Positions 2,333-6,654 of a stretch of DNA of 6,806 bases are shown here, one piece after another. Within the stretch, counting starts at the first letter, position 1. Every line of letters starts with the position of its first letter. The DNA comes from a virus. Taxonomy: Duplodnaviria; Heunggongvirae; Uroviricota; Caudoviricetes. Below the pieces are notes generated by a model. It was not told where the DNA came from, did no database searches, and was given only the letters and a program-made list of their open reading frames with translations. The DNA is taken from the IMG/VR virus record IMGVR_UViG_2563366964_000004. One strand, 5' to 3'. The position numbers and the translations under genes were made by a program.

Positions 2333-3226
2333 ATGTCAGCTAAAAATGAACTTGTCGAACTGATGAAAGCAAAAGGTCTTAACCAGACGCAGGTCGCCCG
2401 CGCTATTGGTAAGAGCTCTGCCGTAATCAGCCAGTACCTGAATAATAAATACGACGGCGATATTGCATCGCTGGAAAACGATATTCGTAGCTTTATCGAT
2501 CGTCAGCATGAAAAAGAGCGCTCGGCACGTATCAGCGTCAAATTTGTTGATACCCCAACAACGCGCAAAGCCGTTGATGTTATACGCATGGCGCACGTCG
2601 AAGGTGATATCAACGTGCTTTACGGCGAAGCCGGTCTGGGCAAGACGATGATTTGCAAAGCCTACGTCTCTAAATACCGGGATGCGTTGCTGATTGAGGC
2701 CGACCCTGGCTACACCGCACGCGTAATCCTGGAAGAACTCTGCAACCTGCTGGGGCTCAGTACCCGCGGCAATATGCATGAACTTAGCGAAGCCTGCATC
2801 AACAAGCTGCGCGACTCTGGGCGCGTGCTGATTATTGATGAAGCTGAGAACCTCCCTCTGCGTGCGCTGGAATCTATCCGCCGCATTCATGACAAAACGG
2901 GGATCGGCATCGTCCTGGTTGGTATGCCTCGCCTGATTCTGAACCTCAAGGGCAAACGCGGTGAGCTCGTACAGCTCTATAGCCGTGTCGGTTTCGCCCT
3001 CAACCTCGGGCATAGCCTGCCGGGTGCTGATATTGACGTCATCGCCAGCAGCGTTCTCCCGGATGGCCTGAATGAAGACCTGAGCAAAGCGCTGTTCAAC
3101 GCATCAAAAGGTAATGCCCGCCGACTGTTCAAGCTACTGCGCGGTGCAGTTCGTACCAGTGCAATGAATGATGTTCCGGTCAGCGGTCATATCGTCAATC
3201 AGATAGCCGAAATGCTGATCCATTAA
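2333..3226 (+). CDS. B: Mu-type transposition ATPase / target DNA activator (MuB-like AAA+), 297 aa
   Basis: RBS GAGGAAG before ATG 2333. N-terminal HTH-like segment (LNQTQVARAIGKSSAVISQYLNNKYDGD, compare MuB FINDKYNGD). Walker A GEAGLGKT (about nt 2624-2647) and Walker B VLIIDEAENL (about nt 2825-2854). Size and position immediately after A match MuB. Confidence 0.9.
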   Translation: MSAKNELVELMKAKGLNQTQVARAIGKSSAVISQYLNNKYDGDIASLENDIRSFIDRQHEKERSARISVKFVDTPTTRKAVDVIRMAHVEGDINVLYGEAGLGKTMICKAYVSKYRDALLIEADPGYTARVILEELCNLLGLSTRGNMHELSEACINKLRDSGRVLIIDEAENLPLRALESIRRIHDKTGIGIVLVGMPRLILNLKGKRGELVQLYSRVGFALNLGHSLPGADIDVIASSVLPDGLNEDLSKALFNASKGNARRLFKLLRGAVRTSAMNDVPVSGHIVNQIAEMLIH

Positions 3227-4865: not shown

Positions 4866-5588
4866 ATGGAAAATAAAGAGAAATATCTCCAGCGTATTAA
4901 AAAACTGCTGGCAATGGCGCGTAATAACTCCAGCGCTGAAGAAGCAGCACTCGCGCTGAGCCGCGCCCAGCGCCTGATGGAAACCCACAAACTGACTGAA
5001 GCCGATGCGGCGATGATGGATATCAACGAGGCATCCACTCAGAAAGCCCCATCACATGCTGAAAAGATGCCTGAATATATGGCGCTACTGGCTCATATGA
5101 TAGCGCTGGCATTCGGGGTTAAGTTCTATACCACCCACGGTCATGAGCGCTGGGATGCTCCAGCAAAACGCACCATCACCTATTACGGACCGGACGAACG
5201 TCCGCAGGTTGCAGCTTATTCCTTCGAGGTTCTTGGCAAGCAGCTGGCGAAGGCCCGTCGTGAATACACCGCCACGTTGCGTAAAAATATCAAACCCGCC
5301 ACCAAGGTGGCTCGTGCCGATACGTTCTGCTCTGCCTGGGTGAATGGTGCCTATGCCGTTATCAGTGACTTTGCCGTCACTGAGGCCGAAGAGACTCTCA
5401 TGGAGAGCTATCGCAGCAAAAAACTGAGTCAGGGCATGAAGAAACTGGAGCCTCGTAAACCGGGAAAAGCCAGCGGCACCGATGATGCAGCTAATCAGGG
5501 TTATCGGGCTGGCCGCAATGCGCAGTTACATCATGCTGTGACGGGGTCTTCAAATGCTGTAGCTCGAATTGAAGGGGGACCTCAATGA
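4866..5588 (+). CDS. DUF2786-like phage protein, 240 aa
   Basis: RBS AAGGAG 8 nt before ATG 4866. The N-terminus KYLQRIKKLLAMARNNSSAEEAALALSRAQRLMETHKL matches the DUF2786 signature as I recall it (K.L.LA....N..EAE.A...AQ.LM). The family is frequent in prophages. Its stop overlaps the next start (ATGA at 5585-5588). Confidence 0.7.
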   Translation: MENKEKYLQRIKKLLAMARNNSSAEEAALALSRAQRLMETHKLTEADAAMMDINEASTQKAPSHAEKMPEYMALLAHMIALAFGVKFYTTHGHERWDAPAKRTITYYGPDERPQVAAYSFEVLGKQLAKARREYTATLRKNIKPATKVARADTFCSAWVNGAYAVISDFAVTEAEETLMESYRSKKLSQGMKKLEPRKPGKASGTDDAANQGYRAGRNAQLHHAVTGSSNAVARIEGGPQ

Positions 5589-6088
5589 GAGATATCACCG
5601 CACTGGCGCAACACCTAAGAGTGTATGCCGAAGAATTCAGTTATCCGGTTCTATCTCCTGATGATTGCAAAACGCTGGTAGATGCGCTGGAAGCAGGACA
5701 ACCACACCACAACGGCCTGATGCAGCTCTCTAATGAACTGGTGATGGCTAAGCAGAGAATCGCAGAACTGGAGTCCGGCACAGCCACCGCGTCGCAGAGC
5801 GATTACTTTGCCTCTCTGGTAGCAATGGCTCGTGTTTCAGCAGAAAAAGCGATGCGGAAGTTCCCTCAGCCGAACTACGTGCTTCTTAAGGTTGCGGAGG
5901 AAGCTGGCGAGGTCGTGCAGGCCGGGGTCCATTACGCAGAGAAACGGATGGAGTGGCAGCAGGTAGAGGGCGAGATTGTCCAGCTGTTGGCAATGCTGAT
6001 TCGCCTGGTGACGGAGGGCGACCAGATTAATGGCATCACTCCTCCGGCCGATGGCATCCAGGTTATCGAAGGGGATAATTATGACTGA
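5585..6088 (+). CDS. Protein with MazG-like (all-alpha NTP pyrophosphohydrolase-like) C-terminal half, 167 aa
   Basis: RBS GGGGGA before ATG 5585. The C-terminal half LLKVAEEAGEVVQAGVHYAEKRMEWQQVEGEIVQLLAMLIRL shows the two acidic helices typical of MazG/HisE-like nucleotide pyrophosphohydrolases (EE.GE ... E.E..LL..L..L). The N-terminal ~90 aa is unassigned. This is a fold-level call from motif only. Confidence 0.55.
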   Translation: MRDITALAQHLRVYAEEFSYPVLSPDDCKTLVDALEAGQPHHNGLMQLSNELVMAKQRIAELESGTATASQSDYFASLVAMARVSAEKAMRKFPQPNYVLLKVAEEAGEVVQAGVHYAEKRMEWQQVEGEIVQLLAMLIRLVTEGDQINGITPPADGIQVIEGDNYD

Positions 6089-6446
6089 ACAACAGCGCAA
6101 GCCGGTGGTATTCATCGCCGGGCCGATGACCGGGTATCAGGATTATAACCGGGCAGAGTTCGACGCCGAGGCTAGTGTCCTGTCCGATCGAGGCTTCACC
6201 GTACTAAATCCGGCGATACTTCCAGATGGCCTTGAGCACCAGCAATATCTGGCAATTACGCTGGCGATGCTGGAGCAGGCTGATTCCGTTTTCCTCCTGG
6301 ATGGATGGGAAAAAAGCCGGGGCGCAATGCAAGAATTTCAGCGTGGCCGTGAGTTAGGTCTGGTATTTATGTTTCAGTCATGGGAGACAGCAACCCTCGC
6401 CATTATGCATAACCGCTACTCTCTTCGGGAGGTGACCAGTGAATAA
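6081..6446 (+). CDS. DUF4406 / nucleoside 2-deoxyribosyltransferase-like (DNPH1-like fold) protein, 121 aa
   Basis: ATG 6081 preceded by GAAGGGGA, overlapping the upstream stop (ATGACTGA). Motifs VVFIAGPMTG, VLNPA and LLDGWEKSRGAMQEF (conserved Glu77 at nt 6309-6311) match the DUF4406 signature and the D-G-x-E-x-S-x-G catalytic pattern of that superfamily. The track's 6030 start lies inside the upstream gene and is rejected. Confidence 0.65.
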   Translation: MTEQQRKPVVFIAGPMTGYQDYNRAEFDAEASVLSDRGFTVLNPAILPDGLEHQQYLAITLAMLEQADSVFLLDGWEKSRGAMQEFQRGRELGLVFMFQSWETATLAIMHNRYSLREVTSE

Positions 6447-6654
6447 TGTTATTGGATGCCAGTTCCTGGACAATGGCAATCGACGCATCTGGCATTTTCG
6501 AAACACCAGCCAGGTTGTTGAATACCCCAAATTACCTCTCCGAATCCGATTCCAGTTTTTTGATGCTCATAACAGGAAAATTCGTGGCAAGGCCGAGCAA
6601 AGTGAAATGAGAAAAGCCATTGACCATTATCGGAAGTTACGGGGGATTAAATAA
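6439..6654 (+). CDS. Hypothetical small basic protein, 71 aa, GTG start
   Basis: Strong SD GGGAGGTG (6427-6434) before GTG 6439, which overlaps the upstream stop (GTGAATAA). Arg/Lys-rich product (…RKIRGKAEQSEMRKAIDHYRKLRGIK), possibly nucleic-acid binding. No family recognised. Confidence 0.45.
   Translation: MNNVIGCQFLDNGNRRIWHFRNTSQVVEYPKLPLRIRFQFFDAHNRKIRGKAEQSEMRKAIDHYRKLRGIK

Follow-up and report, generated by a model that had tools for sequence, protein, structure and literature searches.

When two genes of a phage operon overlap by a few nucleotides (nt) and both seem to encode nucleotide-handling proteins, do they form a functional pair or are they merely neighbors? The question is raised by a 6,806-nt stretch of DNA (hereafter the window) from the IMG/VR virus record IMGVR_UViG_2563366964_000004 (Caudoviricetes), which covers the early part of a transposable, Mu-like prophage. 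Two adjacent genes, here called gene 1 and gene 2, share 8 nt in this region. A preliminary description of the sequence had read them as a translationally coupled MazG-like and DUF4406 pair, which could take a nucleoside triphosphate (NTP) to the monophosphate (NMP) and then to free base and sugar phosphate. The features concerned are listed below.

5585..6088, plus strand: gene 1 (open reading frame [ORF] call), 167 amino acids (aa), an early protein of Ead/Ea22 architecture with a probable MazG-like C-terminal domain
6081..6446, plus strand: gene 2, 121 aa, DUF4406, fold of the nucleoside 2-deoxyribosyltransferases (NDTs) and DNPH1; start ATG at 6081, stop at 6444-6446
6081..6088, plus strand: start/stop overlap ATGACTGA of the two genes; similar overlaps are seen at 5585-5588, at 6439-6446 and at further junctions of the operon

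Gene 1 and gene 2 are not a conserved, co-inherited module. We consider them to be, more probably than not, two independent accessory ("moron-like") early genes that are neighbors in a recombination-prone region of a Mu-like prophage. A survey of gene-pair co-occurrence had been suggested as a check on the proposed module, and its outcome speaks against it. Two locus surveys were made, each covering the best 80 loci with flanks of 3-4 kb. Among the viral loci encoding the C-terminal domain of gene 1, DUF4406 lies within 4 kb in 5 of 80; all five are Mu-like, and their arrangements differ, the two genes being overlapping or spaced, with DUF4406 upstream in two. Among the 80 closest DUF4406 viral loci, two encode the domain: one is of this phage type, and the other has the reversed order. 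The Mu-like loci among them number nine, of which two carry the domain and seven do not. The complete genomes in the Klebsiella phage records include 25 with the domain and 8 with DUF4406, and zero are shared. Furthermore, none of the lambdoid homologs of gene 1 examined (L005-L008) has DUF4406 downstream.

The same conclusion is reached when closely related elements are aligned. In three sister Mu-like prophages (L011, L012 and L013) the gene for a DUF2786/DUF7168 protein and the DUF4406 gene are kept, and unrelated genes stand between them. The slot holds genes for 117, 81 and 86 aa in an Escherichia coli assembly (L011; the 86-aa protein is DUF4752), for 175 and 66 aa in Yersinia, and for a winged-helix protein of 149 aa in a genome that bears the label Martelella alba. 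DNA homology between the window and L011 ends at 5539 and resumes at 6094, 13 nt into DUF4406; thus, gene 1 has the behavior of a cassette that can be exchanged precisely.

The genes that flank DUF4406 in general were grouped into 31 upstream and 39 downstream clusters. No MazG family was found among the 25 neighbor families listed, and the commonest family is Ead/Ea22 (8 of the 70 cluster representatives). An Ea22-like ORF is present no more than 3 kb from DUF4406 in 42 of the 80 loci, and lies immediately downstream in 21. The C-terminal domains of these Ea22-like ORFs are many and unrelated, the lambda-type HRYYGVGG domain being one of them. DUF4406 and Ea22-like genes therefore inhabit the same hypervariable accessory neighborhood, whatever C-terminal domain the Ea22-like protein bears, and this shared neighborhood explains the adjacency of gene 1 and gene 2 without a functional pair.

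As a separate observation, DUF4406 in lambdoid viral contigs (L099-L178) typically stands between a DUF977 or DUF1627 gene on its 5' side, 3' of the replication genes, and an Ead/Ea22-like gene on its 3' side.

The overlap on which the preliminary description leaned is present as described (ATGACTGA, 6081-6088). It cannot serve as the mark of a special partnership: overlaps or gaps of at most 1 nt are found at 7 of the 11 gene junctions of the operon, so that the overlap of gene 1 and gene 2 exists but does not stand out. Upstream, gene 1 and its neighbor share 4 nt (ATGA); downstream, gene 2 and its neighbor share 8 nt (GTGAATAA). Gene 2 has a Shine-Dalgarno-like sequence within the 3' end of gene 1, and a similar one, GAAGGGGGA, read from the sequence at 5571-5579, precedes gene 1. 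The close packing of gene 1 and gene 2 follows from an operon that is compact and translationally coupled throughout.

6069..6075, plus strand: Shine-Dalgarno-like AAGGGGA for gene 2, within the 3' end of gene 1 and 5 nt before the gene 2 start

The Ea22-like ORFs adjoining DUF4406 in L099-L178 share a tail, ...AGI[RK][IV]xGE, despite their unrelated C-terminal domains; the end of gene 1 is ...DGIQVIEGDNYD (window 6050-6085). Such a common tail could be a conserved recombination or translation-coupling junction.

What kind of protein, then, does gene 1 encode? Direct searches with its product against Pfam, NCBIfam, PHROGs and PDB sequences gave no meaningful match, and the top PDB sequence matches, alpha-amylases at E > 0.2, were discarded. 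The protein has 827 homologs, mostly from prophages of Klebsiella, Kluyvera, Citrobacter and related hosts, many of which are named ead or Ea22-like or are positive for PF13935 in their N-terminal part, outside the C-terminal domain. In an alignment with 14 homologs, a MxDITxLAQ start, a LVxALE segment and a RIAELE coiled-coil segment are common to all; the middle varies strongly in length and content, and the C-terminal ~90 residues are almost invariant. Ten residues of the N-terminal part (M1, D3, I4, T5, L7, V32, A34, L35, E36 and E63) are invariant with the PF13935-positive homologs. Gene 1 itself has no match to PF13935 at E <= 1. Close homologs with the same N-terminus and a longer middle do match this model (P0001, 2.5e-11; P0057, 5.9e-15), and jackhmmer seeded with Ea22-like N-terminal parts alone retrieves the gene 1 protein.

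5585..5785, plus strand: N-terminal Ea22-like scaffold of gene 1, residues 1-67 (MRDITALAQ, LVDALE, coiled coil ...QRIAELES), from the homolog alignment

The Ea22 protein of lambda is tripartite: its N-terminus is short, a coiled coil comes next, and the C-terminal domain varies from phage to phage; at full length the protein forms tetramers, and its C-terminal domain is dimeric (PMC10834534). The same three parts recur in gene 1: a short N-terminus, a coiled coil that we infer from the sequence pattern, and a C-terminal domain that is exchangeable. From these sequence comparisons, gene 1 is a short member of the Ead/Ea22 mosaic group.

The C-terminal domain deserves separate consideration, because it is here that a MazG-like function had been proposed. 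Residues 68-167 of gene 1, searched against 1.84 billion representatives, gave 736 matches (representative clusters) at E <= 0.001. The domain comprises ~85 residues and usually stands at the C-terminus of proteins of 98 to >400 aa. It occurs on many different N-terminal contexts, sometimes with DUF551 after it or Lar before it, and virulent Klebsiella phages, Soft among them, encode it alone as a protein of 100 aa. Fusion of the domain to DUF4406 was looked for in ten extended proteins and none was seen, the extensions being DUF551 and Lar. The domain and its two acidic motifs are located as follows.

5795..6049, plus strand: C-terminal domain of gene 1, residues ~71-155 (~85 aa), a predicted three-helix MazG-like module without a family model
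5897..5911, plus strand: codons E105-E106-A-G-E109, an EExxE-type acidic motif on helix 2, aligning to EEMGE of Bacillus MazG 5ie9
5966..5983, plus strand: codons E128-G-E130-I-V-Q133, a second acidic motif with Gln where MazG has Asp, aligning to EEELGD of 5ie9

The two motifs that the preliminary description had picked out, AEEAGE (residues 104-109) and EGEIVQLL (128-135), are indeed present and are nearly invariant across the family. Among 58 diverse members of the domain family, E105, E109 and E130 are invariant, and E106 and Q133 are at least 90% conserved; a minority has Asp at the position of Q133 (EGEIIDNL, EDEIVDLL). The residues that are near-invariant down to 45% overall identity are E105, E109, K102, H116, E119, R121, E130, R140, G145 and D146. 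Conservation of charged and polar residues at such divergence argues for a conserved ligand or catalytic site.

Several signals, each of them weak, point in one direction. The AlphaFold model of the domain (predicted local distance difference test [pLDDT] 87) has three long helices. In a Foldseek search of the PDB with this model no match was significant (best E = 1.6), and 6 of the top 25 matches are all-alpha NTP pyrophosphatases (NTP-PPases): 2oie, 6j22, 7yh5, 2yxh, 2gta and 5ie9. Of the 58 members, 13 match the Pfam MazG model PF03819 (best E = 2.4e-4) and 4 match PRA-PH, these matches being E-values and the gathering score not being shown to be passed for any member; no other family recurs. 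A broader profile of the domain has Bacillus MazG 5ie9 as its best PDB sequence match (E = 0.28), with EEaGE aligned on EEMGE and EgEivQ on EEELGD, and gene 1 weakly matches the HisE model TIGR03188 (E = 0.088). By the agreement of these independent signals from sequence and structural models, the domain most probably belongs to the MazG-like all-alpha NTP-pyrophosphatase superfamily as a distant member.

This likeness emerges only from family-wide and structural evidence and not from the gene 1 sequence itself, for which no match at E <= 1 was obtained to MazG PF03819, PRA-PH PF01503 or related Pfam models. The original assignment of gene 1 as MazG-like therefore holds for the domain family as a whole; it finds no support in the Pfam, NCBIfam and PDB sequence searches. 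In comparisons by hhalign of the domain profiles with single sequences (gp163 and the gp162 C-terminus of Mycobacterium phage Wanda, and a Vibrio phage NTP-PPase) the probability was at most 1%, a result that is uninformative because single-sequence templates are weak. The first profile of the domain (A2) had matched only ribosomal L23 among PDB sequences, at E ~0.4, which was rejected as chance.

Two contigs that carry the domain have a second NTP-PPase nearby. It is of the Vibrio/DR2231 type in L075 (1640-2194) and of the dGTP-diphosphohydrolase type in L092 (4179-4928).

Gene 2 is assigned more directly. Its product matches Pfam PF14359 at E = 1.3e-27 (96.5 bits, cutoff 22), residues 9-96 covering positions 2-89 of the 91 in the profile, and matches phrog_355 at E = 2.6e-32. 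A family profile of 28 members aligns over its full length to the NDT of Trypanosoma brucei, 2a0k (E = 0.007), and the DUF4406 profile also aligns to MilB and BcmB, N-glycosidases acting on cytidine monophosphate (CMP) and hydroxymethyl-CMP (hmCMP). The AF2 model of gene 2 (pLDDT 89.6) shows alternating strands and helices. Consistently, 2a0k is the top Foldseek match of this model (E = 1.5e-4, probability 1.00, TM 0.66), followed by the NDTs of Chroococcidiopsis and Leishmania, human DNPH1, and MilB/BcmB. The Foldseek check that had been suggested for both proteins is thus clear for gene 2, and for the domain of gene 1 it yielded only the insignificant matches given above. As for models of characterized families, PF15891 was matched below threshold (E = 0.023, 15.5 bits, cutoff 30) and PF05014 was not matched.

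The family features of DUF4406, an AGPxTG loop, LNPA and S-x-G-A-x-x-E, are all present in gene 2. Across 28 aligned sequences, actinophage members included, and again across 30, the invariant residues are G14, P44, A45, S79, G81, A82 and E85. In the profile alignment E85 coincides with the Glu of DCGTAFEVG in 2a0k and of SPGTHIEIG in 4jen, which we take to be the catalytic nucleophile of these solved enzymes. The conserved Glu had earlier been placed in DGWEKSRG; this residue, E77 (GWEKS), varies among members (GWKAS, GWRQS, DYQES, GSEKS), and the invariant Glu is E85. With this correction, the reading of gene 2 as a DUF4406, NDT-like protein is borne out: as judged from alignments and the predicted structure, it is a DUF4406 enzyme with the NDT/DNPH1 fold that keeps a catalytic-type Glu.

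6333..6335, plus strand: codon E85 of gene 2, the invariant Glu of S-x-G-A-x-x-E and candidate catalytic nucleophile, from the alignments of 28 and 30 DUF4406 proteins

A search of 50,697 phage records found DUF4406 in 638. The literature searched describes no function for it, and nothing on function came from looking for DNPH1 with anti-defense or for NDT-like phage proteins with MazG; NDT-like proteins figure there only as retron effectors, on the host side.

Two actinophage annotations were encountered that are probably in error. Arthrobacter phage Phives gp30 (L015 1495-1863), named "MazG-like pyrophosphatase," is a 122-aa protein with DUF4406/NDT domains only, and Leona gp53 (L017 1486-1857), also from an Arthrobacter phage and named "deoxycytidylate deaminase," aligns as a plain DUF4406.

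The DUF4406 gene is itself mosaic. When window positions 6200-6521 are compared with L002 and L009, a breakpoint is seen inside the gene at ~6250-6300: identity is 100% to ~6200 and 59-63% from ~6300 on, and the C-terminal third of DUF4406 together with the downstream gene is thus a different allele. A recombination breakpoint exactly at the junction of gene 1 and gene 2 in the L009/L002 variants was ruled out, since the breakpoint lies inside gene 2.

Could the two proteins nonetheless act in sequence? According to this proposal the MazG-like domain would convert a (deoxy)NTP, or (d)NTP, to (d)NMP and pyrophosphate (PPi), and DUF4406 would then cleave the N-glycosidic bond, so that dUTP/dUMP, a modified dNTP or an immune signal would be removed early in infection. 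Both proteins come from nucleotide-handling superfamilies, gene 2 is matched by PHROG family 12019 with the name "MazG-like pyrophosphatase," and human DCTPP1, which is MazG-like, works with DNPH1 in one pathway that sanitizes the modified-nucleotide pool. Other phages go further. Gp162 of Wanda is a DUF4406 (residues 7-111) fused to a PRA-PH-matching domain that is similar to DR2231 (5i0m; E = 1.9e-6), a solved MazG-like NTP pyrophosphohydrolase, and the next gene encodes a dATP/dGTP diphosphohydrolase. Vibrio phages 1.087.A and H188 have a DUF4406 gene for 94 aa that shares 4 nt with the gene downstream, which encodes 143 aa and is annotated as an NTP-PPase, and whose product is homologous to the Wanda MazG domain (BLASTP E = 5e-6). 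Genuine MazG-type enzymes are thus joined to DUF4406 in two independent ways at least, which makes the route from NTP through NMP to base a reasonable hypothesis for those phages. The fusion and the overlapping pairs also mean that a functional link of the two enzyme classes exists somewhere and could apply here. Together with the fact that the pair is intact and widespread within this phage type (243 indexed blocks of the assembly collection contain the gene 1 protein in exactly this form), and with the 3-4 kb reach of the surveys, by which a more distant partner in the same genome is ruled out for the complete Klebsiella phage records alone, these links weigh against the view that the two genes are independent. 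However, the MazG partner in those phages is of a different subfamily, the DR2231 type with a C-terminal RSN..K helix, which has no detectable similarity to the domain of gene 1, and a neighbor of the DR2231 or dGTP-diphosphohydrolase type was found at 0 of the 80 closest DUF4406 loci. The families of gene 1 and gene 2 almost never co-occur, their order and spacing vary where both are present, and the canonical last Asp is missing in most members of the C-terminal domain. Since each gene works without the other in most of the phages that carry it, sequential action at this locus would be opportunistic and not an evolved unit. We regard it as unlikely here; the route is plausible in general but unproven at this locus. 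Of the two-step module first proposed, the tie of DUF4406 to genuine MazG enzymes stands, in Wanda and the Vibrio phages; this particular pair is not co-inherited, and its order is reversed in some relatives.

Gene 1 might also be no enzyme at all. It could be an oligomeric early regulator like Ea22, binding a host or phage factor and biasing lysis-lysogeny or transposition, with the MazG likeness a relic or a mere similarity of helical bundles and DUF4406 functionally unrelated. Its Ea22-type architecture would fit, as would the many unrelated C-terminal domains of Ea22-like homologs; lambda Ea22 is pro-lysogenic and has no known enzymatic activity (PMC10834534). The Gln that 90% or more of the members have for the metal-binding Asp, the three long helices of the model against the four or five of MazG enzymes, and structural matches short of significance are consistent with such a role. 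Yet the residues of a catalytic or ligand-site type remain almost invariant down to 45% identity, a minority of members has the canonical Asp, the 13 of 58 members that reach the Pfam MazG model are not accompanied by any other recurrent family, and the domain is also found without the Ea22 scaffold. On this evidence a non-catalytic gene 1 seems quite improbable. The same low standing is given to the boldest proposal, that DUF4406 and MazG-type enzymes are a recurrent, undescribed two-step phage pathway (NTP to NMP to free base and sugar phosphate) that was assembled independently at least three times, in the fusion of Omegavirus mycobacteriophages, in the Vibrio overlaps and here, with a MazG-like domain on an Ea22 scaffold upstream of DUF4406. 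Its target in this Mu-like phage would be a specific nucleotide, destroyed early in infection, be it dUTP/dUMP, a damaged or modified dNTP, or a nucleotide-based immune signal, and the Ea22 coiled coil would be a general platform for effector delivery.

L179 1992-2704 and L180 1992-2701: DUF4406/NTP-PPase pair of Vibrio phages 1.087.A and H188

Returning to two independent accessory genes as the favored explanation, what might each of them do? In gene 1, the conserved N-terminus and coiled coil would carry an exchangeable C-terminal effector, here a remote MazG relative. The coiled coil may bring two MazG-like domains together, as MazG active sites need, and the paired domains may bind or hydrolyze an NTP. 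Gene 2 would act by way of a Glu-ribosyl intermediate on the N-glycosidic bond of a nucleoside or (deoxy)nucleotide, which it would cleave or transfer. Both proteins plausibly act on nucleotides, as their families and predicted folds suggest; the activities, substrates and oligomeric states considered here are ones that we infer.

The setting agrees with what had been described, a Mu-like early operon. The window begins with a Ner-like gene (1-228), MuA (230-2287) and MuB (2333-3226), and 3' of MuB stand a DUF3164 gene, the DUF2786/DUF7168 gene and then gene 1 and gene 2. In longer contigs of the same element the gene 2 region is followed by GemA, Mor, lysis genes and Mu-type head genes, so the pair occupies a variable stretch between the DUF2786/DUF7168 gene and gemA/mor. 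One contig, L001, is 99.9% identical to the window. The element is flanked by different host genes in different assemblies, as expected of a transposable phage, and the four displayed places of the exact gene 1 protein are likewise all Mu-like prophages with differing host flanks. The element is absent from the phage reference collection, and E. coli genomes give fragment matches only. Two further genes border the pair.

4866-5588: DUF2786 and DUF7168 protein, 240 aa, phrog_421, directly upstream of the variable slot
6439..6654, plus strand: 71-aa gene, phrog_9400, GTG start, overlapping the end of gene 2 by 8 nt (context only)

Every Mu-like relative examined keeps the DUF2786/DUF7168 gene just 5' of the variable slot. 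On the other side, the 71-aa phrog_9400 ORF was called downstream of DUF4406 in L002, L004 and L009-L013. Most related Mu-like loci have it 3' of DUF4406, so that DUF4406 is accompanied by it more constantly than by gene 1. Minus-strand ORFs at 5641-5787, 5837-6115, 5932-6057 and 6204-6332 were not counted as genes because they are antisense inside two conserved plus-strand genes. The region of gene 1 and gene 2 contains no Rfam family and no terminator, and no significant promoter was found in it, the one weak promoter-like site being fewer than in shuffled sequences. A PADLOC defense search gave no match, and together with the literature searched it speaks neither for nor against the suggested anti-defense role.

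The slot proteins of other elements include a further widespread domain. The 175-aa protein in the Yersinia slot (L012 3280-3807) ends ...RRNLVKAGALITAEIDRLDR, and its C-terminal domain is found in 123 phage records, mostly of Pseudomonas, all annotated as hypothetical. The protein was considered as another NTP-PPase, for which there was no evidence, its C-terminus being this other domain. An ORF in L106 that overlaps the 3' end of DUF4406 has a C-terminus, ...RRDLVKAGALILAEIERIDR, that is similar by eye to the 175-aa protein.

The main value of this analysis lies in the fold assignments and in the pointer to better test cases elsewhere. A DUF4406 gene now has an assigned fold and a candidate catalytic residue, E85, and a widespread domain without a Pfam model (736 representative clusters) is a probable divergent relative of MazG. 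Ea22-type coiled-coil scaffolds can carry enzyme-like effector domains, which offers a lead for the long-unexplained Ea22 family. For a two-step nucleotide-degrading route, the genuine DUF4406-MazG fusions and overlapping pairs of other phages are better test cases than this locus. A word of caution also follows: a start/stop overlap in a compact phage operon is poor evidence of functional partnership.

How do the two genes compare with known systems? Gene 2 has in common with the NDTs, DNPH1 and MilB/BcmB a Rossmann-like fold, with E85 aligned to their catalytic Glu; it differs in being only 121 aa long, 15-18% identical to them, and part of a separate uncharacterized family, DUF4406. The MazG-like NTP-PPases (PF03819, PF01503; 5ie9, 2gta, 2yxh, 3cra, 2oie, 2p06) resemble the domain of gene 1 in that their helical bundle recurs among its top structural neighbors, and in having EExxE on one helix and E-x-x-(D) on the helix after it, with matching spacing and a matching pattern of hydrophobic residues around the motifs. 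In contrast to them, the domain of gene 1 falls below the family thresholds, mostly has Gln for the last metal-binding Asp, is shorter (three long helices and not four or five) and usually sits on a coiled-coil scaffold; the C-terminal helix of the DR2231-type enzymes is absent from it.

In the Wanda fusion and the Vibrio pairs, as here, DUF4406 is combined with an all-alpha NTP-PPase, or a probable relative of one, in one polypeptide or in overlapping genes. Their NTP-PPase is recognizably of the DR2231 type and comes after DUF4406, whereas the MazG-like part of gene 1 is of a far more divergent subfamily, stands on an Ea22 scaffold before DUF4406, and is paired with it without conservation. 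Wanda gp162-gp163 (L014 1483-2690) places three nucleotide-handling domains in a row. Compared with lambda Ea22/Ead (PF13935), gene 1 scores below the family model and belongs to a Mu-like early operon, whereas Ea22 belongs to the exo-xis region; nevertheless, both are early accessory proteins in which a short N-terminus and a coiled coil carry a swappable C-terminal domain.

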